63,664 nt of DNA, filler included, from Bonamia ostreae (GCA_040357525.1; 21 parts of 21 records of this genome joined end to end with filler, not necessarily neighbours in it), one strand, 5' to 3'; counted from the first letter of the whole stretch, positions 1,264 to 62,065 are shown. A program made the numbers and translations. Notes: generated from the sequence alone by a model not told the origin.

Positions 1264-1924
1264 ATGCAAAAGGAAGAAAAAAGAGAAAAGGAAATATTGA
1301 ACAAATCAAAAAACGAAGAAACGAAAAAATTGAACAAATCGAAAAGTAAAGTAACTAAAAAAATGAAAATAGCGAAAAAATCTAAAATCGAAGAATCGAA
1401 TAAAGAAAAAAAATCAAAAAACAAAAAATTGAAAAAACTAAAAAACGAAAAATTGAAAAAACCAAAAAACGAAAAATCGAAAAAATCGAAAAAACCAAAA
1501 AACGAAAAATTTGAAAAATCAAAAAAATCGAAAAAACCAAAAAACGAAAAATTGGAAAAATCGAAAAAATTGAAAAAACCAAAAAACGAAAAATTGGAAA
1601 AATCGAAAATAATAAAAAACGAAAAATTGAAAAAATCGAAAATAATAAAAAACGAAAAATCGAAGAAACAAAATAAAATCGAAAAGAAAACAAATAATAT
1701 AATCAAAAAACCAAAATTCCAAAAACCGGGACAGAGATTTAAGGAACCAGACCAAGTTTGCTATTATCTAAAACAAATTAAATAAGAACGACTCTTTGTT
1801 AATTTTTTACGGCTCTCTAAGAAAACAAATTCCTGAAAGCAAAATGGCTGAAAAATGGCTTTTAACACACGGATGTTTACCAGAAAATGAAGCGAAAAAT
1901 GTCTTTGAACGACTAAAAAAATAA
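1264..1924 (+). CDS. Lys-rich repetitive protein with a conserved small C-terminal domain; 31-nt intron at 1756-1786
   Basis: KKPKNEK repeats; splicing gives PGQRFKEPDQNDSLLIFYGSLRKQIPESKMAEKWLLTHG, resembling a conserved eukaryotic uncharacterised domain. Confidence 0.7.
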
Positions 1925-2804
1925 TTTGAAATTTTAAAATGTCTTTTTTGATGTTATAATTTATTTTGTAAATCGTATTCCAAAAAAATGTTCGTTATAA
2001 ATGGATGAACATGTTTTTCTGTTTTTATATTTTCGGACTGTGATTCGGCGTTTAAAGCTTCATAATCATCAAATAACGTTCTAAAAGAGAATATCGGATT
2101 TTTGTCGAAGCAAAAATCTTCGTCATCGGAAGATAACGAAAAAGCGGATTTTGATTTGTTATTTAATCTTTTACGTTTTTTTAATAGAATTTGCAATTTT
2201 TGCAATTTTTAAATGCGATTTTTTAAACATTTTTTTGTAAAGATCGGATATTTTATAAGAATTGATTTTTCTTATAATTTTGATTTTTTTCCCAAGAAAG
2301 CTAAATTTAATGCAAAATTACTTTTTCTATCAAAATTACTTTTGATGTTAAATTACTTTTGTTTTGGGTTTCAAATCCATTTTGAGTTACGACCTTTCTA
2401 ATTTTTGGTTAAAAATGCAAATTTGAAAATATATGAGAACTTTTTAATTAAAAGCTAATTATTGCAATGAATCGCAAAATAGTTTTGTTTATTGCGAAGA
2501 TACCCAGATATGTAGAGAACAATCTGGAAATCGCCTGGAATTCGACACCGATCGGAAAGAAAAAACCGCTAAATTTTAAAACTCAGATTTATCCAGTTTT
2601 AGCTAAAATCTGCTTTAAATAGAATTGATTGCTGAATAATGATAATAAAAAACATAAAATGTGAAATTTTTAACAAAAATAGAAAGTTGCATTGTGGACT
2701 TTAGTCGCCTATGGAGCGTTCAAATTGTGGAAAATTAAAAATGATAATCCGTTAACAAGATACCAAACAGTCGACCCATTCCGTTTATTAAAATAAAAAC
2801 AGAA

Positions 2805-2952
2805 AACTTAAACTTCAAAATTTTCAAAATGTCAATAAAAAACTAAAACTTCAAAATTTTCAAAATGTCAATAAAAAACTAAAACTTCAAAATGTCAATA
2901 AAAAACTAAAACTTCAAAATGTTCAAAATGTCAATAAAACTAAAACTTCAAA
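2805..2952. repeat. AT-rich minisatellite (unit ~AAAACTTCAAAATTTTCAAAATGTCAATAAAAAACT), probably intronic
   Basis: About four to five degenerate tandem copies visible. Confidence 0.85.
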
Positions 2953-2970
2953 AGGTCCTAGACCGCCACC

Positions 2971-3070
2971 NNNNNNNNNNNNNNNNNNNNNNNNNNNNNN
3001 NNNNNNNNNNNNNNTTAATTAATTAANNNNNNNNNNNNNNNNNNNNNNNNNNNNNNNNNNNNNNNNNNNN
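2971..3070. other. Artificial contig spacer N44-TTAATTAATTAA-N44 (first of 20; others start at 6041, 9107, 12170, 15230, 18278, 21326, 24372, 27414, 30455, 33490, 36523, 39553, 42578, 45599, 48616, 51631, 54643, 57653, 60659)
   Basis: Identical 100-bp block with a six-frame stop linker; the intervening contigs never increase in length (2970 down to 2906 bp). Confidence 0.99.
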
Positions 3071-4087
3071 GTTTCTTCTCGTTAAAAGTTTTGTTGAGCT
3101 TAAAAAATCCCGGAGATGTCAATAGATCGTCGACCAATTTTTTCGTGTTCGAGAACTCGCTTTCGTCGCCACTGTCGTAAGGAAATTCTCGAATCGCCAT
3201 TCGCGCTTTGCTGATCGCCCTCACCATCAAAACGTACACAAAATGCAAATTTTCCACTCTTTCGTTATGTCGTCCAAGAGAACGTTGAAATCTTGACCTT
3301 CATATAATAACCTTTTAAAGTCCGGTTTGGTGCTTTTGCCAATGTTCGTCTTTTCTGCAATATGGGCCGAAACTGAAGCGTGAAGCCCGGAAACGATTCT
3401 GTAAAAGAATTGGTCTTCCGTGCAACTGTCTTCGAAACCGCTTTCTTCAAAATTATTTTTGCAAAAAGCTAATTCCGCAGAGAAAGTCTAATAATGGCTT
3501 CTCCAAAAATTTAATGGAAAAATCTCATCAAAAAGAACCATGGAGACAGTTCTCGCCGTAAATCGCTTTCCAAACTTTGTGCGCGGACTCTCCGCCGTAG
3601 CCGGTGTCCTCGTGCGGATTCGCGGCCAAATCGATGTAAACGGCTAAAAATAAAAAATTCGACATTTTTCGTCGTTGGGCGAGACGATCCACATTTCGTC
3701 GTCTTCTGTCCAAGGCAAAAACCCGATCGACGTTTTTCTATTTACACGCAGAAAATCGGCCTCGTCTCGCCATTTCTGTGGAACCTAAAAACTAAAAAGG
3801 GCAACATCGCCATCTTCACAGGGGCAAACAGCGCAAGACGGCTTTACACAGAATTTCTGGGCATTCCAGAAAAGGCATTTTTCGTCGAGTGCGACTTTGA
3901 AAATTCGGAAAAAAAGGGTTTTCTGACGTTTTTGGGTAAATCGAACTTTAAGTTCTGAGAGGATTCCGTGGACGTGTCGATTGACTTCAAGAACGTCTGT
4001 TCCGTAACAATCGCATTGCGGCACCTTAAAATCTTTGCAAGAGTTGTGCAGTCCGACGAGTAGAATTAACAGAATTATAATCGTCAT
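3071..4087 (-). CDS. ERO1: ER oxidoreductin ERO1, 5' part; introns 3923-3946, 3785-3805, 3644-3663, ~3447-3540 and 3292-3311
   Basis: Signal peptide; FFRIFKVALDEKCLFW; YIDLAANPHEDTGYGGESAHKVWKAIYGENC; FFYRIVSGLHASVSAHI; ERVENLHFVY. Confidence 0.93.
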
Positions 4088-4145
4088 TTTGGCTAATTAC
4101 GAGCTTAGCTCATACAGATATAATTGTTTGAATTTAGCCGAAATA

Positions 4146-5548
4146 ATGGCTGGGTTCGCAGAGATGTTGATTAGTTTTAGGAACCAACAAGGTTCTTTGT
4201 TCAAATTCGTTTTTGAACTAAATTCAAATCATTTAGGCGAGAAAGTAGTGGAGCAACTTAAAAAATGCAAAGACAGTTTTAATGCCTTTCTAGAAAACGG
4301 TGTTGAAATGCAGAACGCAGACGCAGAGGACAACATTGAAATTGTCATCGCGAAGAATTTTTGTATTTTCACTGAAAAATCAAAATCCGAAAAGCTCAAA
4401 AGTCAAGAAGCCTTATCGTGCATTCTCGGAAAGTTTTATGAATGGATGAACTTGGAGCCACAGAAAAGAACGAATTGGTACATGTTCGTTCTTCTGTTTC
4501 TCTTAAAAGAATATTCGAACTTAAGTGACGAAGTTTAGTAAAAAAGTTTTAGATCGATTTGGACGAAAAGTCGACAAAATGGAAATTCGAAGCGGATTCA
4601 AAAATAAAAACCTTTTTCAGGCTCGTAGCGCAAAACAGAATTGATACCATCAACCATCCAAACTTTTACATTTACGGACTTGTCACCGAGCTATTCAAAA
4701 TCTATTTTAAGGTTTTGGTATAAAATATTTTTAGATGGATAATTATAAATTTTGCGAGGGCTTAAGAATCCAATTGAATTCTCCAGTCTTCCCGTCAATT
4801 GACAATTGTCCAAAATCGCATATAATCGAGTTTAGTTATTATTGTGGAATTTTAGACACTGTTTTCGCGAATTACGAAAACGTTTTGACAATTTTAAACT
4901 TTTACCGTCCCGCAATTTTTTAAACGTTTCAACAATTAAATTTAAGGCTGCGATTAATCTCCAAAAAGCTTTAAACCTAACAAAAAACGAACAATCGAAA
5001 ACAAAAATTCTTTTGTTTTTGATACCTATCAAAGCCCTTTCCTCTCAATTTCCAACATTAGAAGATTTTAGTAAAATATCAAAATCCGAAAAAGCTCTCT
5101 CGATTTTACTTAAATGGGCAATGGCTACTAAAAACGGCGACTTGAAACTCTTCAACGAGTTAACAGATCGTCTTAAACACGTCGTTTTAAATTTGGGCTT
5201 AGAAGACTTGTTCCTCAAAGTCAAGTCGACCACACTTTACAGAAACATCGTTAAAAAACAGTTTTATGACTGCATCAGTTTAGCTCTCTTTCGTGGATGT
5301 CATCTTTCGACAAAACCTCGCCAACAAAAACAAGTTATGCTCACCACGTCCCGCTGCATATTCTCCAAAAAGCCTTTGACGGCGACGAAAGCAGCGGAAA
5401 GCGAAGCTTCGAAGACATCGAAAATATTCTCAGCAACTTAATTTACGACGGGTTGATCAAAGGTTACATCGCGAGACAGCGATGTCTCGTTCTCAGCAAA
5501 AAGTTGCCTTTCCCGCCATTGCTAAAAGGGAAAATTTTGCAAAATTAA
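4146..5548 (+). CDS. PCI-domain protein, PCID2/Thp1/CSN12-like; four short introns (e.g. 4533-4552, 4712-4734)
   Basis: LVTELFKIYFK, IEFSYYCG, KILLFLIPIK, IENILSNLIYDGLIKGYIARQRCLVLSKKLPFP. Confidence 0.85.
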
Positions 5549-5551
5549 AAT

Positions 5552-5960
5552 TTAATCGAATTTCAAGTCTTCGTATTTTATCTTTTTGTTCAAACTGTCC
5601 AAATAGAAGAAACTAGTTTTCACTCCTTTGCATCCTTTCTTCCAGTCATATCCGGTCTTAGAACTAAGAGCTTCTTTTTCCAATTCGACTAAAAATGGCT
5701 CTAGATCGTCGAGGCTTTTGGCGGAAAGCAAAAGTTTAAAAGACTCGCAGTTGATTTTGGAACCTTTCAACATGGTGGTCAAGCAATATTTTGTGTAGGA
5801 CCAACGATGATTAGAGAGCATTGCAATGCGAGCGTACATCGGAACCACATCGGATAACGGCGAAAATCCGTTTTTGTCGAAAACACTTGGATTCCATAAA
5901 GCCCCTCTTGCTATCATCACACTGTCGCAGTTTGTTAAAGATTTGGCTTTTGGAATGCTC
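5552..5960 (-). CDS. tRNA-dihydrouridine synthase (DUS2-like), 3' exon
   Basis: CDSVMIARGALWNPSVF and YTKYCL motifs; start coordinate approximate. Confidence 0.85.
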
Positions 5961-6215
5961 TTTTTGGAACATTGTAATAAAATTTATTAAGAAAATATGG
6001 AAATTGGTGAAAAGTTATTTAAGAATGTTCAAAATTAAAANNNNNNNNNNNNNNNNNNNNNNNNNNNNNNNNNNNNNNNNNNNNTTAATTAATTAANNNN
6101 NNNNNNNNNNNNNNNNNNNNNNNNNNNNNNNNNNNNNNNNAAATTTAAACCAAAAATCCCATTTTGACTATTGCTCATTCCGATTTTAAATTTTAAAAAT
6201 CGAATTCTTTTAATT

Positions 6216-9859: not shown

Positions 9860-10420
9860 TACAAATGACAAAAATTATGCAAAAATAGACAAAATTTATC
9901 GTTAAATCGACAAAAAAATTATCGTAGAAAATGGACAAAAAAATATTGTAAAAAATGGCCAAAATAACAAAATTGCCAAAAATAGTGTTAAAATGCCAAA
10001 AATAAGGACAAAGATTATATAACAAAACGACAAAAATTATCGTAAAAATGGTCAAAAATATCGTTAAATCGGCAAAAAAATTATCGTAGATAATGGACAA
10101 ACAATATTGTAAAAAATGGTCAAAAATATTGCAAAAATTGCGAAAATAACAAAAATTATGTTAAAATGTCAGAAATAAGGACAAAATTATCGAACTAAAC
10201 GACAAAAATTTCCGTAAAAAATGGTCAAAAATATTGCAAAAATGGCGAAAATAACAAAAATTATGTTAAAAATGCCAAAAATAAGGACAAAGATTATCGA
10301 ACTAAACGACAAAAATTATCGTAAAAAATGGTCAAAATAATAAAAATTATATAAAAAATGCCAAAAATAAGGACAAAAATTATCGCAAAAATTAATAAAA
10401 ATTGTTCAAAAATTAAAAAA
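9860..10420. repeat. Degenerate tandem repeat array (recurring AAAATGGTCAAAAATAT / ATAAGGACAAAGATTAT / ACGACAAAAATTATCG blocks)
   Basis: Several diverged copies visible upstream of the ubiquilin gene. Confidence 0.75.
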
Positions 10421-12269: not shown

Positions 12270-13146
12270 CTGTGCCAGTTTGCAGATACGAATCTTCAAA
12301 CGATTGGTGGGTCAGCAAAATGATAAAGAAGCACAAAAGCACCGTGCTCTCCGTCAGCTGGCATCCAAACAACGTCTTCCTCTTGACCGGAGGCTGCGAT
12401 GCTATCTGCAGAATTTTCTCTGGATACATTGAAGAACTCGACACAATGTTCCATTATCAACATTTCTGGTTAAAGGGACGGATATGAAGAATTGGTAAGT
12501 TTGTTCCCGAAATACAACAAATTCGGAACTCTTTTGGCCGAAATCGATTGTTCGAAAAGTTGGATCGAAGACGTTTGTTGGGCTCCGGATGGAATCCAAG
12601 GAGCTTTTGTATGTTTATATTCGTTTATTATTACAGCTCACGATCCGGCTTTGACTTTTTTCGGGTTATCCGCAATCAGCGAAAAGAAGGTCGAAGTACA
12701 AGTTTCCGGTTAAACCATAAAAATAGACGATCAAACTGGGCAACCTCCCGTTTCGAGTCTCCAAATTCGTTGACAATTTCAGATTGATTGCTGCCGGGCA
12801 CGACAACAATCCCTTTCTTTTTCAGAACAACAACGAAGCAAAATTGGAATGGAAATTTGTCGAGAAACTTGATAAAGAAAAAGGCGAAAAAACAGTTTCC
12901 AACAAAAAGGTGACTGCTTTCGCAGCCAATAAAGCGTTGTTCCAAAGTTTTGCCAAATTTTAAAAACGAAAGAAACCACGACGCAAGGGGCAAGTTCTTT
13001 GCTTGAGAAGACTGATTTGAACACACTTCATCAAAATCAAATCATGTTTTTTTGTATAAAAAAGCGGTTTGTCAATAATCGGAGACGGAGCCGAATTTTT
13101 TTCGAGTGGTCTTGACGGAAGAGTTGTTTATTGGAAATTGAAGTAA
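12270..13146 (+). CDS. ARPC1: Arp2/3 complex subunit 1 (WD40), 3' part; five tiny introns
   Basis: NDWWVSKMIKKHKSTVLSVSWHPNNVFL, GAFVSHD, IAAGHDNNP, LHQNQI, SSGLDGRVVYW. Confidence 0.95.
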
Positions 13147-16920: not shown

Positions 16921-18100
16921 ATGGAAAGCTGGATTGAACATTTACACATTACATCGGAAGAATTGAAGAATGCAACATGTTCCTGGCATGAAAATTGTGA
17001 AAAATCTATTAACGATTATGAAGCAGTAGATGTCATTTGTAAAACTGCAACAAGTACAATTTTGAAAGGTAAATTTTTTCAACGCAATATTTAAATATTT
17101 TGTAGTTAAAAATAAAGACGAAATTTATGCAGTAAAATGCATAGACACAACTAATGACATGAGAAAATTTCGAGCAGAAGTCGAGGTGAACAATTTATCT
17201 GTTTTGGCCGGACACGAAAACATTGTGAAGTGCCTGCACGTGTTTGATACAGAAAACCATTCTCTCATTTTCAAAGAACTCTTAATGGGTGACGCATCGT
17301 TTTACATTTACATTTGATTAACTTAATTACCAACATTAATTATAATATAAAGAGATTACAAAGGAGAAAAAGATTTGAATTTCTATAGTTTTATACAATA
17401 ATTAGTATCATTATTTTAAAATTCCTTCGATTAACTGTAAACGTAAAGGTGTTTTAGGTGCAACTGTAGCAGAAGTACTTAGATTCATGCACACAAAACA
17501 AATTGTTTACGTCGATTTAAAAGCAGAAAACCTCATGTTTGACTTTACTGGAAAATTAAAATTGTGCGATTTTGATTTGAGCTATAGAACAAATATTGAA
17601 TATAGGATAAAATTAATAAAACGTGGTTCTCGGGTTTCAGCTGGTTTTAAAATTAAAAACAAATTAAATTTACCGAAAACAATTTTCAAATATTATGGTA
17701 TTTAAAGCACCAGAACAGTCATTTGGAAAGTGTACAAATCAAACAGATTGGTATTGTTTTGGTATGACGCTTTGGGAACTTTTAAGAGGTAAGACACCTA
17801 ACGCTGATTTTTATGGAGATGACTTTTGGTCTGACATTAATGAGAATAAAGCTGACTTTTTTATATTCTTTGATGGTTTTTGGGGAAAAGTAGCCAGATT
17901 GATAAACAAATGCCTTAAAAATGAACCAGAAAAAAGATTGCATTTAGATGATGATAAAGTTTTTCGTCAAATAAAACTTTTTCAGAATATAACCGAAGAA
18001 AATATTAAAAAGTTTTTTCAATTGTAATAACAGGTTCCAAGATGATATAGTATGTGGATTGCTAAGAAAATTTTTGTTCTTATACTAAAATCTTATCTTG
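16921..18100 (+). CDS. Ser/Thr protein kinase (AGC-like, divergent); multi-exon
   Basis: YAVK, HENIVK, IVYVDLKAENL, KLCDFDLS, APE, TDWYCFGMTLWELL, CLKNEPEKR; 3' end approximate. Confidence 0.85.
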
Positions 18101-24040: not shown

Positions 24041-25308
24041 ATAAATTTAAAATTCGACAAGTTTGTTTATATATGTTAGTAATTATAAGCAAAATTTCTC
24101 GTTCAAACAAAACAAAGATTAAAGGCTTCAATTTGCGAATTGAATTAAAACGACAAAATTATAAATTTGTTGACCAAATTACGAACGAATCAATAAACTG
24201 AAAATAAAGCAACAATGAAAAATCGCAACAAAATTGCTTAAACAAAATTTTTACTTAAAAAAAGTAAATTTATCGAAACGAAAATTTTTTGTCGAATCAA
24301 AATTTGGGCGGTAAATTACAGCAACTTTGAATAAATGTTTTCTATAAATGGTTAATATGCTATAACGACAGNNNNNNNNNNNNNNNNNNNNNNNNNNNNN
24401 NNNNNNNNNNNNNNNTTAATTAATTAANNNNNNNNNNNNNNNNNNNNNNNNNNNNNNNNNNNNNNNNNNNNCAAGACATTCAGCGATAATTGTAATCTTG
24501 GTAATCAATTGATAGCTTCAACAATTATACTTCTTCTTGTTAATATCAAGGTATTTTGTAAAGAAGTGGTACAACACATCTAAAATTCTGTCTTCAGTTC
24601 CCTTGATTAAGATGAACTTTCCACACTTTATATTTGTACAGTAAGTATAGCAATGTTTGGCTTTTACACTTCTAAAGGGGAGTAGATAATGATTTTAAAT
24701 CAAGAATAGGCACCTGAAATTCAAAAATAACAAGAACTCTAATTCATGTGTCATATGACTAGTTAAAGTCATGGTTAATATCTGTATGTATAAAAGAGAT
24801 TTAACTTCTGTGATTTCCTTTTACCTAATTAATTTATGGTTTCCGTCGATATGCCAAAGTGAAAGAGGTGATGGTACTTGGTATGTCCGTCTCCTTATCA
24901 CAATCATACTCCTTGAGGTTTGACGTGCTGGGTTAAGACGATGCATAGAATCTCTGATTCTTTGTCTTTGAACACGAATAGATTCAGACCTCAAAAAACC
25001 CTTGAATTGTTTTGTATCCTGTCAAAATAAATGTATACCTATTTAGATATATGTATTTCCAAATATTTGGTTGGTTCAGCAACTTAATCAAACATATATG
25101 TTTGATATCAGATTACTCAATTTCCTTTTGTATTGTTATCTTGCATTAAAAAGAGAATACCTTCAGAATGTAAATTTCAGCTTTCTTTCAAAGATTATAG
25201 AAATTAAGTAGTGGGTACAATTTATCACTAAATGTCCCTGAAAGGGATATACATACAACATGGAAATGCACACAGTCATACTACTAAAGTATACCCCACT
25301 AGCTAATT

Positions 25309-36622: not shown

Positions 36623-37486
36623 GCACTTTTTAGAAATTTCAACAACTGTCTATAAATCTCGTCGTGAAATGGTTAAACTGCAAAAACGACATATCTTCTA
36701 AAAATAAAAGCAGGCCTGCGCACAAAGAAAAATATAAATTGGAAAGATTTGATAAATCTTTATCGACTAAAAAAGCGAAATAGCAATTCGTTAAAAATAA
36801 CTTTCCGGCAATAAATCCAAAATCCGGTTCATTTCCTGTTCAAAACCGTTGTCCAAAATCCGATCAGCTTCGTCAATTACGAGAAGCTTCAGTTTTTTAA
36901 GAACAAATTTTTTTGTGTTCTTGAGATGATCTAGAAGTCTTCCCGGCGTCGCCACGAGCAAGCTGACGTTTTTCGAAAGCATTTTCGCTTCTTTGGCGCG
37001 GTTGCAGCCGCCCATCACGATCCCGATGTTTCTGGAGGGGTGTTCTTTCCCGATTTCTTTTGCGACCCCAAAAATTTGCAGTGCCAACTCTCTCGTTGGC
37101 GATATTATCAGGACGCCTGTGCCTGAGTTTGCAAAATTTAACGTATGGATTTTGTTATTTGGAACGTGTAAATATTAAAAAAAATCGCTGAGACCGTATT
37201 TTTGCTTAAAATTGTCGCGGTGCAAAAGATCAAAAGAGGGGATTAAAAAGGAAAGAGTTTTTCCGGAACCGGTTTTAGCAGCGCCGATAACGTCTTTATC
37301 GGACTTGAGTGAGAATGTGGAAACCATTATGAGAGGGATAGACTTAGCTTGGATTTCGGTCATCGTCGAGAATCCCAGCTTTTTAACGGCGTTTTTTGTT
37401 CGGTCGGAAATGTTTAGACTTTCAAACGATCTATCGGAAATAGAGGTGCTGTCACCAATTTTTGTGGTAAGCTCTCTATCGGACAT
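36623..37486 (-). CDS. DDX18: DEAD-box RNA helicase DDX18/HAS1, 5' part
   Basis: [58 protein letters not shown]. Confidence 0.92.
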
Positions 37487-37816
37487 TAACGATTTGAATA
37501 TAAACGGTTAAAATGTTTTTATATATGATAACAATCCAATTTTTAAATGAATTCGAATTTCGATATTTTTTTCTGAACTACGCTTTGCGATGAACATGAC
37601 AAGGTCAAGGTGGTAAGCCGCAGATTCCAAATTAAAAAAATTGATCCATTTTGGTATTTGATCATCAATTGAAAGTTTTTTGTCAATAAAATTTAATCTC
37701 ATCATTTGCTTTGTTTTAGNNNNNNNNNNAGATTTATAACTTTTGTAGGCAAATTCATACTTTCCAAAAAGTTATTTAAACAAAGTCGATATAAGTTAAA
37801 AATCCAACCAGCTTTA

Positions 37817-42196: not shown

Positions 42197-42433
42197 ATGG
42201 CAAAAAAAAATCAAAAAGTTTTTATTTGTTATTGGAGACATTTTTATTGTCGATTGACGGTTGGGGAATTTCTGCCGAAAAAAGAGGAAATGCGATATTG
42301 GAAGCAAATACGCCGATAATGGATTCGTTGACTGCTAATAAAAAACAATATTGCGATCTCGGAGCTTCTGGTCTTGATGTTGGTCTACCCGAAGGTGTTA
42401 TGGGCAACAGTGAAGTTGGACATCTCACTATGG
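42197..42433 (+). CDS. gpmI: Cofactor-independent phosphoglycerate mutase, 5' part; intron 42218-42237
   Basis: IDGWG..GNAILEANTP..ASGLDVGLPEGVMGNSEVGHLTMG. Confidence 0.95.
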
Positions 42434-42677: not shown

Positions 42678-43148
42678 GCATTTTTGCCCATTCATTTTTA
42701 GCATTTAGAGCGCTCTTGATCGCTTCGTTGATCAGTTTTTTGTCAGCGACGTGATATTTGCAGACGACATGCGAATGCAAAGACGGCATCACTTGCGTTT
42801 TTATGTTTCCCGTTCTAACCTCTTTTCCGTTTACGATACAGGGAATCTCAGGGCATTCACTGAAAGATTTCTAATTTTTGTTTTTTGTCGTTTTTCAATT
42901 TTGTCGTTTTTATAAAATTGCAAATTTCGGAAATTTTCCAATTGTTTTGTAAAAACATATTTTTCAGCAAAAAAAATTGAAATAAAAACGGAAAGAGCGT
43001 GTTTCAGTTCAGCACGTTCTGGACTACCAGGACTGTAATTAAGAAGTTTCTCGCCTCTTAAAGGCGGCAAATTAGGTTCGATAGTTGAAAAGTATTTGCG
43101 TCTTAAAACGTATCGGAATCGACCTTTAATTGCGCGAATTTTTAGCAT
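42678..43148 (-). CDS. ALDH4A1: Mitochondrial delta-1-pyrroline-5-carboxylate dehydrogenase, 5' part
   Basis: Presequence, YSPGSPERAELKHAL, EIPCIVNGKEVRTG..QVMPSLHSHVVCKYHVAD. Confidence 0.9.
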
Positions 43149-43702
43149 TTCGATTTTTTTAGTTTTGCTTTTTATAAGTTATTGTTAACAAAGAAAAATA
43201 TGTGTTTACGTTAATAAAAATATTATTTTTGTTTCTGAAAAGACGTTTTTACTGAAAAATCAACTCTTTCTAAATATTTTATTCAAATTTGTTTAGAAAA
43301 AACAAATTTAAAAGTCAAAACGACGTTTGAAAAGATTAAATTGTACGAAAATTAAAAGAGATTTTTCTTGTCGAAAATATGTTAAATCGACAATTTGTAA
43401 AATAATTAATATTTTATTATAAATATTTCGTAAAAATATTGTAATTTTCGGTAATTTTAAATTTTCTGATTAAAAAGAACGGTTCGTTAATGACTTGTTT
43501 ACTGATATTTTCGTTTCATAGAACTGTCGGCGAAAATCATATTGATTTAATACGCAGAGATCCAAGAATGATTCATTATATCGAGTTTTTTATCCAAATT
43601 CAAAATTTTCTTAACGTTAAAATCTGTTTAAAAAAACAACAAAAAATTTGTAGTCCGTTTTTTACGTGGAAAGACGGAGTAAAAATCAAAAAATCAAACA
43701 AA

Positions 43703-43855: not shown

Positions 43856-46532
43856 ATTGAATTTTTGGAATTTTAAATTTTAAAAAAATAAGTCTTTTCA
43901 AATTTTATCTGTTTTATTTTCTTCGGTTTGTTGCTTAAAAATTATGAAACTTCAAATTATGAGATCCCATCTTGTTATCTTCTTTATCCCGTTCAAATTT
44001 TTAAATTCTTTACAATTATCAATTTTTTAAATCCGTTTAAAGTTGTTTTGGCATTTTTAAATTTCAAAGGCTCAGAAATTGCTTATTTTGAAAAGCAATC
44101 AACTACAATTAAAAGCTAATTGTATCCACTAAAATCAATAATTTTTGTTTATTAAATGACAAATTTTTCAAAAATGGCAATTTTTTTAATCTTGATATAG
44201 TTTATATTTCATTTCGATCATTTCAATCTTTGTTTAGAAATTTTAATTGCAAATTAAAAGACGTTTCTATAAAATTTAAAACATTTTTAGTTTTATGTTT
44301 GAAAAATCGGACCAATTTGTAAATTTGTTTGTCTTTTTTGTTCAAATTCTAAAAGTTTGCTTTTTGAAACTTGCAAAAATAAAAGACAAAGTTTTAGCAC
44401 AAACATGTGCACATTTCTTCCGTTTGCGATTAATGACAACCATTTCCATGAGAATCTTTTGATTTCTTAAAATTTGCAAAAAATATTAATTTTGTCAAAA
44501 AATTAGTAAAAGAATAATTATTAAAATTTGGCCAAAATAATAAAATTTCTAAAAGTTCGAAAAAAATTAGTCAAAACAAAATCGCTTGAAAACCATCAAA
44601 ATTTTGCAAAGAAGCCAAAATTTCAATAACGTTTTTTAGAACGGTTTTAAAATCGTCCAAATTTTTGCTGCGAATAGCCAAAATGCTATCGACTGAATTT
44701 CTATCAAATAACGGCAAAAATAACGGCGAAACAAATGTCAAAGAATCGATAAAAATTTTTACAAATTCTCTGTGACTAAATATTGTTATAATTTTTGATT
44801 TTCTCTTTTCTAAATTATCTTTTGTCTTTATTTGCAAATAAAATTTAAAAACTAATAATAAATGAACAAAAATTTTTCTGACGACAAAATCTCTTGAATT
44901 CAAATCCTCTATTTTCATAATTTCTTTGTTGAAATTTTTAATATTTGTATCGACAATCTGAACAAAATTAGAAAATTTGTCCAATTTTTGATTTTTAGCC
45001 TTTTTATCTTTATCGAAAATTTCATTCATTTTTTCAATCGATTCTATTAAATTGTTTTCGTACTCTTTTTTAATTTGTTCGTTCTTTTCAATATTTTTCT
45101 ATTTTGTCAGTTTTTTAAAATTTTGTTTTTGGCCATTTTTTGTGAAATTTAATAAAATTTTGTTTTGTCCATTTTTAAATTTCTCAAAACAAAAAAAAAC
45201 AAAATTTGTTTGAAAAATATCGCCATCTTCAATAAACTCAATTTTATTGTTCACAAAATTAATTGTCTTAAAAGCATTTTCGTGTAACAAATCAAAATTT
45301 GTTTTAGAATCAACATTTTCTTTAAAATCTTTTTCATTTAATTTATCCAAATTTTCTTCACTAGTTTCATAAGAATAAGAAGAACTGCTTTCGAATTTTG
45401 GCGACAACACTTTTTTGTTGTAACCAAAAGTTTTAAATCCAAGTTCAATAACATCTTTTTCTAATTTTTCTTTTTCGTTTTTGTCAATTTTTTCTTCGAT
45501 TTTGTTAATTTCATTCTTAGCATTTTCAATTTTTTCGTTTTGAATAAATTTTAAATTTTCGTTTTTCGTTTTTTCGATTTTGTTGTTATCGAAAAATANN
45601 NNNNNNNNNNNNNNNNNNNNNNNNNNNNNNNNNNNNNNNNNNTTAATTAATTAANNNNNNNNNNNNNNNNNNNNNNNNNNNNNNNNNNNNNNNNNNNNGA
45701 AATTAGCAAAATCAATTAAAGGCAGGTGTACGGCGAATTGTTACTCAATAAGATTTTGGTGCACGGCAACTTGTTGTTTCGATGTACAGCGAATTGGCAA
45801 GTTTATCAAATTAAGTTTATCATAATTCAATATACGTATGGCATGTGTCTTATACAATTATTTCTTATTGTAATATATTGCAATACACGACATTTAATTT
45901 ATAAAGAAATGGACTTTAGCTCATAAAAGTTCCCTTTAATAGATCAATTGTAGAACATGATCATGAGACCTGTCGTAGAATCAAAAGTATAAAAATATTT
46001 TTGAAATGCGTCTGTTGTGTGTAAACGTATGTACGATGTCCATTTATACATACAGGTGTCCAATACATTTGGTTTCTCAGTACTTTATTTTCCACATCTA
46101 AAATTATGCAGTAATTTTACACATTTATATCGCACATATTAGGAACATGGGTAGCAACCATTGAAAGGTTGAGGCATGTGTGAGAAAAAGAGTTTAAGCC
46201 TAAAGATGAGGCTAGTTTTGTCTATGATTAGTGTTGCATTTCGCTGCATGTAATGTTATATTGTAATTTTTCAAATAGTTGAGTTATGCTTTCTAAAATT
46301 ACACTTCAAGTCTTCATTATATTTTTCATATTATCATTATATACTTGGGACTAACAACAGCTTTTTGCCCTTTGTTTAAGGCTGAATGTTGCCTCGATGT
46401 TTTCTGTTACTTTGGCGTTGTTTGTTTGCATGTTTCTACCTCATTTACAGTTATCCTAAGTCCTTTCATCCTCTTTTTTTTTTTTAAATGAATGCTATTA
46501 AAATGTGTCCTTATTGGTTTGTTTGTTTTTAG

Positions 46533-49628: not shown

Positions 49629-50490
49629 ATGTCCGACACCAAAACCGTCTCTGCGCTCCCTCCAATCCTAAAACTGCAAAACGTTCCCAGAACCACCAAA
49701 AAGACAAAATCCGTCAGCTTCGCAACGGGCACGAAAGAGAAAGTTTCGTCTAAAAATCCCAAAGGACGCCGAAGGCCCAAACAAGTACCACATCACCACA
49801 AAATATCGCCCTTTCGCAGTCGACTCCGTAAATTCTGAAAGTCGTTTCCCGACGACGCAGTTCGGCGCAGTTCTCGGAAGACCGCCCTTCGAACTCTACG
49901 ACCCCGCGGCGCCAAACGAGTACGAAGATTACTGCAAAGCCAAGAAAGAGCGATTAATGCTCAAAAGACACGCAAATTCGCTCTCGCGGATCAACGAAGC
50001 GGAAAAGTCGTCCGCGGCGGAAGAGAAGTCGGCCGAAGGCGGGGACGTTTTTTCCAACTCGTTCGCGGAGAAAATGATGAAGAAGATGGGCTGGGAAGAA
50101 GGGAAAGGTCTCGGGAAGTCGCAGCAAGGAATAAGCAGTTATCTGGTCCCGTCGGGCAGATTCAACCGGCTGAGCGAAGCAGACAAGCGGACGAGCAGTT
50201 GTATGTGCATCGTCAATATGGCGTCGAGAAACCAGATGGATTCTTTTCTGAAGGAGGAAACGATGATGGAGTGCGCCAAGTTTGGGAAAGTGGTGGAGTG
50301 CGTTGTTTATGTGAATCCGGACCACTTCTGTAGTGTGGAGGAGGAAGTGACCATCTATGTCCAATTTCAATTCGATGTCGATTGCGAAAGGGCCGTTTTG
50401 GCGATGGATGGGAGGTTCTTTGGCGGGAGGAAGTTGCGGTGCTATTTTTTCGATTTGAATCGTTTTCTGAGGAGAGATTTTTCTGAGTAA
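49629..50490 (+). CDS. SPF45: Splicing factor SPF45/RBM17 (G-patch + UHM); intron 49743-49764
   Basis: YDPAAPNEYEDY, FAEKMMKKMGWEEGKGLGKSQQGI, ECAKFGKV, MDGRFFGGR. Confidence 0.92.
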
Positions 50491-51008: not shown

Positions 51009-51576
51009 ATGGAAGTAGAAAGTCTTTCAATTTCTTTGTCCAAATCAAAAGATAAATCCAGTAACAGCATTGAAGCGCCTGTCGAGCCGCCATTAGTCAC
51101 TCTCGACGAAAAAGATTTAAAAGACGCTTTTTATAAGAAAAAAAGTTGGCGGAATATGGGAGCGCGAGAAAGATTTTTGAAGATTTTGAAGATTTTCTTG
51201 ATTGTTTTGGCTTTTTGCATTTTGATGATCATTTTCTTTGCTGGCATCACTTTGATGAGTGACGCTTTTAAAGTTCTTTCCGGTTACAATACCAGAAACA
51301 TCTTTGAGTTTGCTAGCAACCCGATGGCAGGTATTTTTTGAATATGCTCATTAATGTGTTGTGTCAACTTATAATAACTGGTAATTTTTAAAAGGATTGT
51401 GTGTGGGAATTTTAGCCACGGTGTTGTTTCAGTCATCCTCGACAACGACAAGTCTCTCTGTGGCCTTAGTTGCTTCAAGCGTTTTAAGTGTGAAAGACGC
51501 AATTCCCATCGTCATGGGAGCAAACGTCGGCACATCTGTTACCAATACTTTGGTGTCTTTGGGGCATATCAGGAAA
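51009..51576 (+). CDS. Sodium-dependent phosphate cotransporter (SLC34/NaPi-II), 5' part
   Basis: [38 protein letters not shown]. Confidence 0.93.
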
Positions 51577-55020: not shown

Positions 55021-55203
55021 TTTTTAATAATATCTGATATAATTTTTTTAAAGTTGTTATATTTTGTGTGTTTAAAATTTGTAACTTAAATGTCTTCAAT
55101 TTTTTTCTAATTCTATTATTAAACAGATTTGATTTTTTCGAAGAATTAAAATTTTTGAACAATGAAAAATTGCAAGGAATAATTTAGAAGACTAAATAAA
55201 GAA

Positions 55204-55464
55204 ATGGCAGACTCGTTGAAACTTCCAGAATTTGTAACAGATTTGTACATAACCGATCGAATTTTGGTTTTTTTGGACATCTCGCCGGAAAACGTTTTTG
55301 TCGCATTTATCTTTTATTTTATGGTCGGAACTTTAGTTCTCATAATTGTTGCCACTGTTGTAAAATTTGCAAGTTATCCCTTGCGCACAGCTCGCTTGGC
55401 TGTTTCCCCTTTGTTTCTAAAACCGGAAAGTGTCGAAGGAAAAAGTAAATTTTTTCAATATTAA
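55204..55464 (+). CDS. Hypothetical small single-pass membrane protein
   Basis: ATG ORF with one hydrophobic helix; may continue through an intron. Confidence 0.45.
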   Translation: MADSLKLPEFVTDLYITDRILVFLDISPENVFVAFIFYFMVGTLVLIIVATVVKFASYPLRTARLAVSPLFLKPESVEGKSKFFQY

Positions 55465-55937
55465 ATTTTATGCTTATTTTAAGGTTACAAGGAGTTGTCG
55501 CTCATGAATATAAAAAGCTAAATTTGAAGAAAACAAAATATCTGAATAAAATCTATAAACAGCAAAACAAAGCTTAATTGCTAAAAATTGCGCGGTTTTA
55601 AGCCCTAATGGTCGCCGTAACAAAAATGTTGACAACATGATTATAAACATTGCAAAATTGGGGAATAAAAAGAGCTTTTGGGATTTTTGCAATTTTGGAA
55701 GCTCTTCCTTTATTCCCGAAAGCAAAAATCAAGTAGAAAACTTTTGACTGAAAATCAGTTGAAAACTTGTCACTTGAAACATTTATAAAAGCTATTTTTT
55801 AGCCGACTAAAATTTGAGTTTTCGTCTAAAAATTTGAATTTAGAAAACCGATAAAAAGCAGTTCAGATTTGGTTTTGTCTGAGACAATCCCTCCGAAATG
55901 CAAAATATATTCCACAAAATCGATTTTCTCCAACTTT

Positions 55938-57084
55938 TTAGCAGTTTCCACGATCACATTTTCTTCTCTTTTTTTTGTGTCGATAAAACTTTTCGTTGAT
56001 ACAATTTAGATGCGTTCCCATCAATATTAAAATTTTAAGATGGTTCAAATTAAAGTTCTCTTGTCCGTTTTTTAAATACCAAAATAACGGTCTCATCCCA
56101 TTAATTGAGACATTTGCGACAAACTCGAGAAAAACGTCGATTTTGTCGCAAGAACTTTTTTTTCGTTCTACAAAAAAAATTTTGTTCTCCCTTTTAACCA
56201 AATTAATCGAATTTGTTTCGTCGTTTTTGCTTTTGCCGCGACCATATTTGCTCCAAAAAGTACACAAATCCAAAGGATTCAGAATGTTTAAACAATCGCT
56301 ATTTTTTCCAACAAAAGTTGTTTCTGGGTCGACCATCGAAACAAACATTTTGTTTGGAGAAAGTGCGGCTTTTTTGGTTAAGACATTTTTGTGTTTCTGT
56401 AAAAAAAGTGAGCCGACGAAAATGAGTTGTTCGTCTTCATTTTCTAAAAATCTGTTTTCAGCCGGAAATTTTATTTCTTTTTCCGGGATTAAACAGTTGA
56501 TAGACAGAAGTTTGGCCTCGAAACTTTTCGAGCAGCCATCAATTTCCTTAAACTGATTTATTTTGAGAGAGCAACTATTGTCCACCAAAAAATACTCGCT
56601 CTTTCGAAGACACGATTTTGATTTTACCATTTTATTGCACTCAATAAATGTATCGAAAAAATCCGAATGAGATGAGCTGTCCAATTTTGGACAATCGATT
56701 ATAAAGATGTTAGAAATGGAGTTCAGTTTGGAAACGAACTGAGCGTCTGAAACTAGACTGTTGCAGTGGCTTGCGTTAAAATATTGAAGGGAATGTTGAA
56801 ATTTCCCCAAAATTTTTGTAAGCGCTTTTTGGCAAATTTTTAAAATTGGCTTGAAAACCATAATTATGGATGTTGCAATTGTTCAGATTTATAGATTTTA
56901 AATCTGCGTAAATTCTGCAAATATCTTCAGCGACCAAATTCCACTTTTTAACCGTCAAATTTTTGTTTTCTATTTTAAGCTTATTTTTGCCAATTTTAAG
57001 ATTGAAAATATGGTCAAAATTGTCGTTGTTTTCGAGATAAGTTGAGATTTTGACCAAAATTTCAAACGGCAAAACGTTTTTCAT
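55938..57084 (-). CDS. Hypothetical protein with F-box-like N-terminus
   Basis: MKNVLPFEILVKISTYL; two overlapping ORFs probably joined by a tiny intron. Confidence 0.5.
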
Positions 57085-57130
57085 TTTAAAAAATTAGTCA
57101 AATTTTCTTTTAGCAAATTTCTATAACAAT

Positions 57131-57600
57131 TTAATCGAAAGACATCGCATTGACAACATCAGTTTCAGAGTCTTTTCTCAGTTCTTCTAGTGCCAATTCA
57201 ACCGTCGTCGCGACGTCTTTAAATCTTTCCGCTATTCGTTTGTAACAAATTGCGGAGTGCATTCTTATGTTTGGCACTTTGTCTTTTCGCATTTTGTCCA
57301 AAACTGGCAACAAAGTCAAAACTTGGTCTTTGTCCATTACTTTGCACAAGCTCTGAGAATCTATCTTAAAAACCTTGAGAATGAACAGTGCCGAACTTCT
57401 GTGAAGATAGTTTTTGCTATTGGTCAAATCTACAATTCGGTTCCAAAAAATCGCGTTAAACTTTTCAGGCGATATTTCTTCGTAAATTTTGGTGATTCCG
57501 ACGCCGATCTCTTTTCTCACGCGATATATTTTGTCGACTAACAAACTTTCGACTTCTCTGAAAAACTTTTCATCAAAATTTTCCAATTCCTTTAAATTTG
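57131..57600 (-). CDS. PP2A scaffold A subunit (HEAT repeats), C-terminal part; 21-nt in-frame intron 57353-57373
   Basis: LVDKIYRVR, NYLHRSSALF, LLPVLDKMRKDKVPNIR, DSETDV. Confidence 0.85.
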
Positions 57601-57752
57601 CGTTCGGAAAAATTTTAAATTCGAAAATAGTAACTTCCGATAAATCTTATCTNNNNNNNNNNNNNNNNNNNNNNNNNNNNNNNNNNNNNNNNNNNNTTAA
57701 TTAATTAANNNNNNNNNNNNNNNNNNNNNNNNNNNNNNNNNNNNNNNNNNNN

Positions 57753-60658
57753 TTCATTTATCTGTACACCTTATTTACTTGAATAAAACAGTTTTTCTAC
57801 ATTTCAAAAATCCTAAACAATAGGTCCATGGACTACGTCCCTCATTTGAACCACCTTGGTCATGTACTTATTAAAAATATTCTCTATATATTCGCAGATA
57901 AATGTATTACCCCGTTTTATGACTCCATCTTACCCCCGTGGTCTATGCTTTTAGCAAATGCGAATTTGCACTTTTTCAGGTAACTTTCGTGTAGATTTTC
58001 TGGTACAGTGATCCTAGAGCAGACGGTTCCTAAATATATCCCCTATATATTCACATGAAAAACACACCTTATCCCATGAGACCATGATTTTGACACTTTC
58101 ATGTCAATTTTCACTTTTCTGGCGGAGTGGTTCTTTGAAATAATTTGTAATGACCCCGGCCTAATTTCGCATTTTCGTGATTATCTCTGCCTTAAAGAGA
58201 ACATGGCACTTTATTTGCAGAAACATGAATCCCCTTCATCCAAGGATTGGAAAATTTACGGACAAACTGACAGACGGACGGATAGATAAACAAGAAACGA
58301 AAGGTATCAGAAAATATCACTTGAGCTTTCAGTTCGAGCGAACTAACAACATGCACACTTAAACGATTTGTAGTATAACATAATACAAAACGTAAACACT
58401 GAAAAGGTGAAACTTCAATCTAATAACTCATGCATACAAAGAAAACAAAAAATAAGAGTATGCCAAGCACATCCCCTGGATATACCAGAGAGGGTATTAT
58501 GTGCCTAGGAGTAGTAAGTATCCCCTGTCAACNNNNNNNNNNATCCCGATATCTTGATCAGGTAGACTGAGAAAACTATAGTCAAAATCAGTGTGCAAGA
58601 AATCGCCTCAATTGGTATGACACATGTCATACAGGATATTAACCAAGGTTTTTGCATGTATTGAACACTTGAAAACTGTAAATAAAATACAAATGACCAA
58701 ACAATATGTCATCATGTTTCCCGGCTACCCGTGTCCAGACTAACTTCACCACAAAGAAAATATTCACGGCAAAACTGCCAATAAACATGCCCCCAGGTTT
58801 TCTTTTCACTTATAGGAGTGTCTATTAATGACTGACATATATCTGCAACAGACGGGCGTATCATGTGCCCTTGTGGTGAACTTTATCAAAAGTTACTCAA
58901 TATCATGTATCTACATGTAGGTCACAATTTTGAAATTTTACAACTAAATATTTTTGAACAGCAACTTACATACACGTGAATTTATACATGTAAATCTATA
59001 CAAAGATCTTTGTAACAAAAGAAAATTCTGATGAGGCAGTCTTTGTTTCTCTTTTTACACGTCCATTTTCCTCCAGCAATATCTAGATGTGTGATCCATA
59101 ATTAACATAGACGGAATACCCATCTTGTAGATATTGTAATCTGTAGATGCATTCATTTGTTCGTCTTTTAATTGCAGAAAAGAAATGAGCTTAGCATACT
59201 ACTTGATGTGGTAGCAGACAATCTTGCACGGGAATGTCACGCATATCTGTCATCGGTGGAGTTTAAGGAGAGAATATTAAAATCGATAAGCAACAAATTT
59301 TCATTGCAGCCAATGGTCGATTTATACGAAAAGGTATCACACGAGGTTGAAAATTGGTGTGAGGGAAATGCTGTCGAAGCTGCAATAAATGAAATAGATT
59401 GCCAAATTAAAAGTTGTTCGACTGAATTTGAAACAAAAGCGCTTCATGTCATCCAATCGACGACGGGTGAAACTGATCATCAATTTCCAAAGACTGAATT
59501 TGGTTTAGAAGGGATGTTTCTTAGGCGTGTTCCAAAAGCAGTGCTATTTCAAATTACGACTTTCTCTAGGATTACATGGCTATTCTTAACAACTTCAAGT
59601 AGAAAAAAAAAACTTCAAGAATTTTTTAAAGAACTCATGGATTCATATTCTATAGATATCTTAAATCAGAGTTTCAAGTCTCTTTTTCAGTTGCATTTTT
59701 GTCCAAAAATAAAGCACTTGGTGAATACCTTTGTACGCAAATATGATGCTCTAAAGATGATATTGGAAGCAAATGCCTTGTCGGAATTGACAGACGAAGA
59801 GATTGCAAATTTAAAAACTGTCGCTGATGACCTTGACAAGATTTCTGATGGATTGGTCAGTTTGAATTCAGCCATGTCCGAGATCCAACATCGTCCCCAA
59901 TGACGACTACGCATATGAATTCATTATCTGCTTTGAAGTTGTTATAAATGTCGAAGAAACACATTTCAAAAGCAACAACTGAAGAAGTTAGATGTAATTG
60001 AGAAGACAATGATTGCATGCGGTAAAAAGAAATTAAATAACGTCATACCAAAAAGGGGGGGGGGGGGTAAAAACTTGCGAAGTAATTAAAGAACAACGCA
60101 ACAAGTATAATAATACTGAGTTCGGGCTTGGAAAGTTTAGAAAGAAACTGAAATACAGATGGTTGACTTGAAATTTCGATCAATGAGGGACAATTTATTC
60201 TTTTCTAATATACCGAAATCTAAAAACGAAATTCCGAGAGACGTCAAAATATTCTTCTCTACATTCCTGTGAAAAGAACACTTTAAAATTGGGCGAAACG
60301 CAAACTTGTGAACCGATTAAAACTTGATCGCGTGCATAGGATTGCGGTATGTACATGTAATTGCAGCGACATTTAATGATTTTAGCACAGGCAACTGATA
60401 TATGGACCGTCCAAAATTAAAACCAACAACATACAAGCTATTAAATCAATGGACATTGTCAACATGAACTATTCGCAAAAAAAAATCAAGAAAGGACACT
60501 ATTTAAAATGTGAAGGATACCTCAATGTAGAGATACATATAAATGTTGTAATGTTTAGTAAGTGATAAGCAAGTGATAGAACACAATTTCATGAAGACAC
60601 CATTAGATACGTTATAAATTAACTGTTTTGTTCCATTGCATAATTACAAGATATCGTT
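57753..60658. other. Metazoan (bivalve-like) contig, probable host contamination; contains one 243-codon exon (59172-59903) of unknown function
   Basis: Gene-poor; GACAGACGGACGGA microsatellite followed by a CACTTGAGCTTTCAG..GAGC end motif; no tiny introns. Confidence 0.75.
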
Positions 60659-60790
60659 NNNNNNNNNNNNNNNNNNNNNNNNNNNNNNNNNNNNNNNNNN
60701 NNTTAATTAATTAANNNNNNNNNNNNNNNNNNNNNNNNNNNNNNNNNNNNNNNNNNNNGAAAAGACTAAATTTTGTAAATTTAACAAACA

Positions 60791-62065
60791 ATGATCTCCT
60801 GCCCAATAAACGCCGTATATAATTTTGAGTCAGGAGACTCAAATTTGCCGATTACAAAATTGGCCGATTTCAAATTCGACCAAAATAGCTTTTACAATTG
60901 CATTTTGGATCCCAAAATATTAATTTTAAAAAAAGTTTTGACTTAAATTTTAAAGCGAATGAACAAAATAAAATTGGCGAAAGAAATAATTTTTAAGAAC
61001 AAAATCGATTGTGGACTCTCTTTTTTGGATTTTAGACTGTTGTTCCAAAATATTTCAAATTGGTCAAAAAAATATCCCAATTTGACTCCTTTTTATTGTT
61101 ATTTTTACAAATAACATTTAAGCGCTAAGATGTTTAAAAGACCCTCTGCTTCTAAGATTACTACACCATTTGAAAATCGGATTTTTTTGTTATAACTTAA
61201 ATGATTTAGAACTGCTTGAAATATTAGATATTTCTTATAAAAGTTTTTTGTATAAATTTAAAGCGACAATAATGGCTAATCCATGGCTCAACTATAACCA
61301 AATTTTAGTGAGCTTAAGTAAAGGAATCCGTTATTTTCTTGTTGATAGTGAATTCTATCTAAATTGCATTTTCAAAGCTTTAAAATATTTTAAAATAAAA
61401 AATGGCGTACATATCGGTGTCATAATGGATGACATGTTTATTGATTTTTATATTTTTGCATAATTTGCCATTTTATGTGAAAATAAAAATAGGAAAACAA
61501 TAAACAAAATGGCATTCAACGCAAAAACTGCAAATAAAATGGCAGATTCGCATAATTTGCGTGTAATTACTTTTGACATAAATTCGAATTTTGATAAAAT
61601 TGACAATTGCACATTCTTCTCAAACGAAAATTGCAATTCGAACATTTCAAAATTCATATTGCGTCCCATTCTGTTCAAAGTCGTAAAAATAATCTCGATA
61701 AGAAAAGACGTCACCAAAAAGACGATAAAATTTAATTATTTTGTAGATGACAGCGTCTACCAAAATTTCTTCCATTTGAAAACGCATTTAAATTCAAATC
61801 CTTTGCCCTTTTCGTTGAAAAGAGATTTCAAAATAAACGAGAAAAATTACATTTCAACGATTTGGGGCAGAACTTGTGACGATTTGGATTGCTTTTACAA
61901 ATATATTTATTTGCCTGAAATGAGTGTTGGAGATTGGTTTCTGTTCAAGTTTTTTTTCGATTTTTAAGAAATATCGATTTTTCCTCGTTAAACACGTTCA
62001 CAGAATTTAACGGTTACGCCAGCAAAAGAACGACGTTCTACGTTATTGAGACAAATATGAAATAA
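60791..62065 (+). CDS. Ornithine decarboxylase-fold protein, predicted catalytically inactive; four introns (e.g. 61098-61122, 61949-61968)
   Basis: LTPFYSLRC, YFVDDSVYQNF, STIWGRTCDDLD, LPEMSVGDWFLF, FNGY. Confidence 0.85.

Follow-up and report, generated by a model that had tools for sequence, protein, structure and literature searches.

Are the many short interruptions in the genes of this stretch of Bonamia ostreae DNA spliceosomal introns and, if so, how are their ends recognised? The stretch analysed here (the window) is 63,664 nt long; B. ostreae belongs to the Haplosporida (Ascetosporea, Rhizaria). A sequence-only reading had proposed tiny introns with a GTT donor and frequent AAG or GAG acceptors between positions 1756 and 61968. 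We conclude with high confidence that these are genuine GT-AG spliceosomal introns of B. ostreae, which are very short, densely spaced and show a preference for a GTTY donor (Y = C or T). The proposed span does not hold as a single locus, since the window consists of 21 separate short contigs from a fragmented assembly, ordered by length from 2970 down to 2906 nt, with genes cut at their edges (ARPC1 begins at base 1 of contig 5, iPGM leaves contig 14). The joints are 20 spacers, in each of which the twelve letters TTAATTAATTAA stand between two runs of 44 N; the spacers start at 2971, 6041, 9107 and so on through 60659. Additional 10-N gaps are found at 37720-37729 and 58533-58542. Any feature spanning a spacer is an artefact.

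RNA and DNA contigs were compared on contig 2 (3071-6040), where ERO1 on the minus strand and a gene for a PCI-domain protein on the plus strand are arranged head to head. Ten short stretches, five in each gene, are missing from the contigs of the public sequencing run X4, and all ten are retained in the contigs of X1, which is a DNA run. The nature of X4 is given as "RNA?", which is a guess; its contig depth is about 1000-2300. Each of the ten missing stretches has exactly one GT..AG placement on the strand of its own gene:

3292..3311, minus strand: ERO1 intron, 20 nt, GTT..AAG; missing in X4, kept in X1, sole GT..AG placement
3445..3538, minus strand: ERO1 intron, 94 nt, GTT..AAG; X4 joint 3444->3539, with 14 extra bases inside in X1
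3644..3663, minus strand: ERO1 intron, 20 nt, GTC..TAG; X4 against X1
3785..3805, minus strand: ERO1 intron, 21 nt, GTT..TAG; X4 against X1, sole GT..AG among four equivalent placements
3923..3946, minus strand: ERO1 intron, 24 nt, GTT..CAG; X4 against X1
4192..4236, plus strand: intron of the PCI-domain gene, 45 nt, GTT..TAG; X4 joint 4189->4235 (cut +2)
4533..4552, plus strand: intron of the PCI-domain gene, 20 nt, GTT..TAG; X4 against X1
4712..4734, plus strand: intron of the PCI-domain gene, 23 nt, GTT..TAG; X4 against X1
4882..4946, plus strand: intron of the PCI-domain gene, 65 nt, GTT..AAG; X4 joint 4881->4947
5261..5283, plus strand: intron of the PCI-domain gene, 23 nt, GTT..TAG; X4 against X1

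When these stretches are removed, ERO1 is an open frame of 280 codons up to the contig edge, and the PCI-domain gene is an open frame of 423 codons. We read the missing stretches as spliced introns because splicing predicts GT..AG ends on the matching strand together with restored frames, which a strain deletion or DNA elimination does not predict. Three features of U2-type introns were found: absence from RNA contigs (10/10 on contig 2), GT..AG ends (10/10), and restoration of the frame and of protein colinearity. Nine of the ten donors are GTT (p = 0.003 for this set by itself) and one is GTC; the acceptors are TAG (six), AAG (three) and CAG (one). The standard genetic code is sufficient for the spliced frames of ERO1, the PCI-domain gene and the kinase gene described below.

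The same contigs permit some further observations. The starts of ERO1 and the PCI-domain gene lie about 60 nt apart (4090-4150), and one X4 contig crosses both genes with the introns of both strands removed; their transcripts therefore overlap or abut. In the 94-nt ERO1 intron, X1 carries 14 extra bases at 3447. Within 3071-6040, about 28 single-base sites vary among X4, X1 and the window, and X4 and X1 have two variant contigs each at 4400-4516. There is therefore more than one parasite strain or allele in the public data. The RNA-Seq run X6 covered 5 of 30 bins on contig 2 and gave no junction there; X23 covered two bins.

Outside contig 2, 13 introns were placed by homology (eight) or through a public gene model (five). 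The protein-to-DNA aligner permitted GT..AG introns of 15-130 nt and gave no score at position +3 of the donor. GT..AG was imposed by the aligner on these 13 introns, which are thus not a test of GT..AG ends. For ARPC1 and DDX18, alignments were made to 12 of 120 listed homologues each. The kinase introns come from the public B. ostreae hypothetical protein MHBO_002047 (P0391; 309 residues), which was retrieved with a kinase frame of contig 6; once five GT-AG introns are taken out, contig 6 matches it at 309/309 residues. The introns placed in this manner were:

12448..12475, plus strand: ARPC1 intron, 28 nt, GTT..AAG; 9/12 spliced alignments
12613..12636, plus strand: ARPC1 intron ahead of the VSHD motif, 24 nt, GTT..CAG; 12/12 alignments
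12696..12726, plus strand: ARPC1 intron, 31 nt, GTA..TAG; 9/12 alignments, ambiguous donor
12947..12972, plus strand: ARPC1 intron, 26 nt, GTT..AAG; 8/12 alignments
13046..13064, plus strand: ARPC1 intron, 19 nt, GTT..AAG, the shortest of the set; 11/12 alignments
37304..37324, minus strand: DDX18/HAS1 intron, 21 nt, GTT..AAG, in frame and stopless; 12/12 alignments
37123..37194, minus strand: DDX18/HAS1 intron, 72 nt, GTC..CAG; 12/12 alignments
51331..51394, plus strand: Na/Pi cotransporter intron, 64 nt, GTA..AAG; overlap on PDB chain 9z60_A, single gap-free GT..AG pair
17069..17105, plus strand: kinase intron, 37 nt, GTA..TAG; MHBO_002047 mapping
17299..17352, plus strand: kinase intron, 54 nt, GTT..AAG; MHBO_002047 mapping
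17388..17448, plus strand: kinase intron, 61 nt, GTT..AAG; MHBO_002047 mapping
17644..17707, plus strand: kinase intron, 64 nt, GTT..AAG; MHBO_002047 mapping
18012..18033, plus strand: kinase intron, 22 nt, GTT..CAG; MHBO_002047 mapping

After removal of its five introns, ARPC1 encodes 248 residues without a stop. Here the sequence-only reading had preferred the GTT at 12613 over a textbook GTATGT at 12609, and all 12 alignments agree with this choice: the donor at 12613 gives the VSHD motif, and the one at 12609 leads to a frameshift and a stop five codons on. For the ARPC1 intron with the ambiguous donor, two of the 12 alignments used an in-frame alternative at 12702-12726 (GTT, 25 nt) and one used 12690. 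In DDX18, excision of 37304-37324 brings back the spacing ahead of the motif AKTGSGKT, and the joins after intron removal are free of gaps, as is that of the Na/Pi cotransporter. The frames flanking the latter intron match 9z60_A up to residue 127 and from residue 124, so that the join is fixed to within a few residues. Searches with the ARPC1 and DDX18 exons returned no spliced protein of the same species (best identities 77% and 71%, respectively).

Further candidates remained outside the counted set. A third candidate intron in DDX18 (36698-36801, minus strand, with its GTT at 36801) appears in three of 12 alignments with a length of 104 or 107 nt and is absent from the other nine. In Spt6 (contig 3), alignments to 12 of 150 listed relatives were inconsistent: the long introns which they placed (74-126 nt) lie where conservation is poor, and none was counted. 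Three candidates derive from frame joining or from the sequence by itself:

42218..42237, plus strand: candidate first intron of iPGM, 20 nt, GTT..GAG; frame joining
1756..1786, plus strand: candidate intron, 31 nt, GTT..AAG; read from the sequence
61949..61968, plus strand: candidate intron at the end of an ODC-like frame, 20 nt, GTT..AAG; read from the sequence

Apart from the iPGM candidate, no GT..AG pair connects the ATG at 42197 with the frame that has the Pfam Metalloenzyme match. Its GAG acceptor is thus plausible as a prediction from the frame, and it would be the lone GAG among 24 introns.

The resulting set of 23 introns (ten from RNA, eight from homology, five from the public gene model) was placed without use of the +3 position, and its statistics can thus be used to examine the donor. 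Lengths range from 19 to 94 nt and are most commonly 20-24 nt. The claim that most introns measure 19-31 nt is borne out for 14/23, which are no longer than 31 nt; the other nine measure 37-94 nt. Seven of the 23 lengths are divisible by three, which shows no depletion in a sample too small to judge. The introns are dense, with 22 of them in about 4.3 kb of coding sequence from five genes, i.e. about 5 per kb.

At position +3 of the donor, T was found in 18 introns (78%), A in three, C in two and G in none. T follows 43% of all GT dinucleotides in the window and is found at this position in 42% of 3,057 decoy GT..AG pairs of 19-31 nt. The excess is significant against a background of 0.43 (p = 6e-4) and, by a margin smaller than the raw 78% suggests, against the local T content of 50% at +4 to +9 (p = 0.005). 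The proposed GTT preference thus stands in the whole set as it does in the RNA set, and the +3 position does not simply follow the T-rich background. At +4, a pyrimidine is present in 19/23 introns (83% vs a background of 54%, p = 0.004; T in 14/23) and A in two (33% background, p = 0.007). G at +5 occurs once, against 13% in the background (p = 0.18). In the upstream exon, positions -3 and -2 are A in 16/23 cases each (33% background, p = 4e-4). The 5' signal can therefore be written roughly as A-A-N/GTTY, where the slash marks the exon/intron border.

At the 3' end, HAG (H = A, C or T) is preceded by a short stretch rich in T. T is found at acceptor position -5 in 16/23 introns (42% background, p = 0.007), and the 3' part of the introns shows an A-rich block at -9 to -7 ahead of a T-rich block at -6 to -4. 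Position -3 is A in 11, T in eight, C in four and G in none of the introns; the corresponding background frequencies over all NAG in the window are 44, 18, 20 and 18.5%. TAG acceptors thus show a mild enrichment (p = 0.04), there is no GAG (p = 0.009), and A at this position is neither avoided nor preferred. AAG acceptors are indeed frequent (11/23), as had been claimed, but no more so than the background; the GAG acceptors which had been listed beside them find no counterpart among the placed introns. A branch-site motif was not seen in the 23 introns.

A codon-usage chain search which was blind to positions +3 to +6 served only as a control for the +3 position. It predicted 31 introns outside the three contigs used for training, 23 of which have T at +3. 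In its improved form, penalties of 6, 8 and 10 led to the recovery of 13/17, 10/17 and 10/17 known introns and to a total of 101, 47 and 32 predictions, respectively. An earlier version of the chain search (about 0.17 bits per codon) had found 5 of the 10 RNA-verified introns on contig 2 and was abandoned. Naive listing of all frame-joining GT..AG pairs was uninformative as well; it gave 840 and 886 candidates, and their length histogram was flat.

Several observations weigh against genuine introns with a GTTY donor and should be kept in mind. RNA support is available for 10 of the 23 introns only, and all of it comes from one contig and from one run whose RNA nature is guessed. Contigs show presence alone, and say nothing on the efficiency of splicing or on minor isoforms. 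The five introns of the public model may partly stem from a gene predictor. The 5' part of the introns is T-rich throughout (50% T at +4 to +9), which weakens the +3 excess, and three GTA donors demonstrate that a purine at +3 is tolerated. Finally, the blind chain search is inaccurate: with a penalty of 8 it places 10/17 known introns exactly, and it is at odds with the public kinase model.

Could the introns be real and the T at +3 carry no signal? Only GU and AG would then be needed, T would stem from the T-rich 5' parts, and GTT would be found simply as the commonest GTN. The composition of the sequence speaks for this to some extent, as T follows 43% of all GT, makes up 42-44% of the intron interiors and reaches 50% at +4 to +9. 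The AAG acceptors, at 11/23 against 44%, show that at least one of the two oddities in the sequence-only reading is explained by composition. However, the excess of T at +3 exceeds both baselines (18/23 against 0.43 and against 0.50), it is present in the RNA set by itself (9/10), it is accompanied by a depletion of A at +4 (2/23 vs 0.33), and it reappears in the blind chain search (23/31). We thus consider an absence of signal improbable. A strict definition of introns by their length, as in mikrocytids or Stentor, would likewise make the sequence past GT..AG irrelevant. Such a definition matches the 14/23 introns within 19-31 nt, and 7/10 RNA-verified introns lie even within 20-24 nt. Still, the remaining nine extend over 37-94 nt, the 94-nt ERO1 intron is 14 nt longer in X1, and 2,060 nt of mature mRNA retain 28 unspliced GTT..HAG pairs of 19-31 nt. 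The length-based definition which had been put forward as one option is thus disfavoured, and we regard it as very improbable.

That the missing stretches are not the result of splicing at all, being strain deletions, assembly artefacts, ciliate-like DNA elimination or U12-type introns, is barely conceivable. The guessed nature of X4 and the many single-base differences among X4, X1 and the window, which point to more than one strain, leave some room for it. However, all ten stretches have GT..AG, and not TA, as their borders when read on the strand of the interrupted gene, both frames are open upon their removal, and the standard genetic code is sufficient. The extended 5' motif of U12-type introns is (A/G)TATCC, and none of the 23 introns starts with ATATCC or GTATCC. 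We thus return to genuine spliceosomal introns with a preferred GTTY donor as the explanation which we adopt.

How might such sites be read? The introns would be removed by ordinary two-step splicing chemistry, with both ends recognised across a very short intron. The canonical 5' consensus GTRAGT, which pairs with ACUUAC of U1, was not found: +3 is a purine in 3/23, +4 is A in 2/23 and +5 is G in 1/23 introns. As the donor departs from GTRAGT at +3, +4 and +5, a canonical 5' end of U1 could pair with little past G+1 and U+2. The donor pattern would fit an altered or a minimal pairing at the 5' splice site and, with it, the hypothetical divergent spliceosome of the sequence-only reading. No spliceosomal snRNA was found in the window by an Rfam search, which gave no hits at gathering scores and five weak, non-spliceosomal hits at E <=10.

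Three states of U1 come into question. By analogy to Entamoeba, the 5' end of U1 may carry a compensating change, which is possible but somewhat doubtful. Alternatively, U1 could be unchanged and pair weakly; U6, Prp8 and the AT-richness of the intron would then provide the selection, and we give this slightly less than an even chance. Loss of U1, or divergence past recognition, seems rather unlikely. Our weighting is divided in this manner because lineages with a pyrimidine at +4 can keep a canonical U1 and because mikrocytids show only U2, U4 and U6. On the 3' side, the window contains a frame for an SPF45/RBM17-like protein (49672-50487, plus strand) with a G-patch (Pfam, E = 3.4e-12) and a C-terminal UHM whose best solved match is Splicing factor 45 (E = 1.7e-13), followed by PUF60 and U2AF65. 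At least this 3'-site factor is therefore present. In humans, a link between SPF45 and the splicing of short introns has been reported.

The two verified mature mRNAs together measure 2,060 nt and retain 28 unspliced GTT..HAG pairs of 19-31 nt; 7 real tiny introns were removed from them, so that such pairs outnumber the real tiny introns by four to one. Compared with these decoys (GC 0.41), the real introns (GC 0.28) are richer in AT and in T, but some decoys are equally AT-rich.

The GC content of the window is 25-38%. A Pfam scan of all 291 stop-to-stop frames with at least 60 residues identified ordinary eukaryotic genes, each spread over several frames, among them ERO1, a PCI-domain protein, Spt6, a kinase, emp24, DDX18, iPGM, an Na/Pi cotransporter, USP-type hydrolases and ODC. 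A quick tree placed the ARPC1 protein of the window within a 5-row clade adjoining a plasmodiophorid clade, which is compatible with Rhizaria. The labels of the DNA runs that share sequence with the window, namely a coded organism name, "oyster" or "mollusc metagenome", likewise agree with B. ostreae. Two frames at 42679-43178 (minus strand) have no Pfam match at E <=0.001; by eye, we take them to be the N-terminus of a delta-1-pyrroline-5-carboxylate dehydrogenase which runs off contig 15 at its start; one intron probably separates the two frames.

A few side observations concern other parts of the window. Long low-complexity frames rich in Lys, Asn and Glu lie at 1228-1782 (plus strand), at about 9860-10400 (plus strand) and at 44574-45596 (minus strand); they contain internal repeats which are about 70-75% identical and have no Pfam match. 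On contig 9, the integrase core domain rva_4 has a short match at 24824-25021 (minus strand; E = 4.6e-6), which is probably a transposon remnant. A weak Rfam match to the H/ACA snoRNA SNORA69 was obtained at 55659-55784 (plus strand; 29.9 bits vs a gathering score of 47, E = 0.33). Between 36623 and 46600, ten DNA runs and one RNA-Seq run each share a near-constant 7-9% of the sampled words, and three DNA runs share 53-92%; the portion common to many runs could be a multi-copy or conserved piece.

As a wider and more tentative interpretation, which is possible but which we hold to be less probable than not, B. ostreae and perhaps all Haplosporida may have rewired the recognition of the 5' splice site in an intron-dense genome, either through a U1 which has co-evolved with GUUY or because U1 has become dispensable. 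The second option may hold in the related mikrocytids, for which U2, U4 and U6 alone were identified according to the accessible part of the study on these organisms (PMC10245619). Donors which depart from GTRAGT at +3, +4 and +5 are tied to intron-poor lineages in the available portion of a recent preprint (bioRxiv 10.1101/2022.06.08.495308). If true, a rewired recognition in Bonamia would thus break the usual tie of transformed splice signals to intron loss, and the intron-dense case would be a test of the co-evolution of splice signals and snRNAs without prior loss of introns. The Ascetosporea would then also present a graded series of intron miniaturisation, from haplosporidians with about 20-90 nt and a loose sequence to mikrocytids with a fixed 16-17 nt.

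There is a practical side to these findings for the annotation of B. ostreae, which is a major pathogen of flat oysters. In the part of its text that was available, the genome paper describes "canonical" spliceosomal introns and gives averages of 2 introns for each mRNA and 658 bp for the coding length (PMC11069148); in the five genes considered here there are about 5 introns per kb, and many of them measure only 19-24 nt. We suspect that introns of 19-24 nt are often missed by pipelines for gene prediction and read mapping. If missed introns are found genome-wide, the gene models will need to be revisited, as will the number of genes and the gene losses that have been inferred.

To what extent have such introns been described before? 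The accessible text of the genome paper (PMC11069148) gives no intron length or donor sequence, and the word "intron" is absent from four of its supplementary text files. The search for an intron length or a donor sequence of Bonamia or other haplosporidians covered published full text and found none; papers on actin genes in subscription journals lay outside its range. Some papers on haplosporidian actin genes are said to mention short introns. As far as the literature could be searched, the pattern is thus undescribed, but the data are public and the public gene model on contig 6 already holds introns of this kind.

Among known systems, the donors most resemble those of Entamoeba, a comparison already drawn in the sequence-only reading and upheld by T at +3 in 18/23 and mostly T at +4 (14/23). 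Both have GT-AG introns with these two preferences in an AT-rich genome. In Entamoeba, U1 carries ACAAAC, which matches the GUUUGU donors, and several lineages whose donors have a pyrimidine at +4 retain a canonical U1, as stated in the accessible part of the preprint (Roy & Bowser, bioRxiv 10.1101/2022.06.08.495308). However, Entamoeba is described there as intron-poor, with a near-invariant hexamer (88-90% GUUUGU) which includes the G at +5. In Bonamia the introns are dense, G at +5 is found in 1/23, a preference is seen for GTTY only, and most introns are far shorter.

The mikrocytids Mikrocytos mackini and Paramikrocytos canceri (PMC10245619) are closer in lineage, being likewise AT-rich ascetosporean parasites of marine invertebrates with extremely short spliceosomal introns. 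In the portion of that study available, 224 introns are reported, all of 16 or 17 nt and with a highly conserved sequence, together with a spliceosome of 17-19 proteins (PMC10245619). In contrast to what is given there, the Bonamia introns measure 19-94 nt, show low sequence conservation and occur at about 5 per kb.

The tiny introns of Paramecium, Stentor and the Bigelowiella nucleomorph have GTA donors. They resemble those of Bonamia in their GT..AG ends, their AT-richness and a modal length near the lower limit of splicing (15-25 nt), as cited in the accessible part of PMC10245619. The mode in Bonamia is likewise below about 30 nt (14/23 introns at <=31 nt), but the lengths are not confined to a window of a few nucleotides. 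The length distributions of Paramecium, Stentor and the nucleomorph are narrow, whereas Bonamia combines a tail to at least 94 nt with GTT donors.

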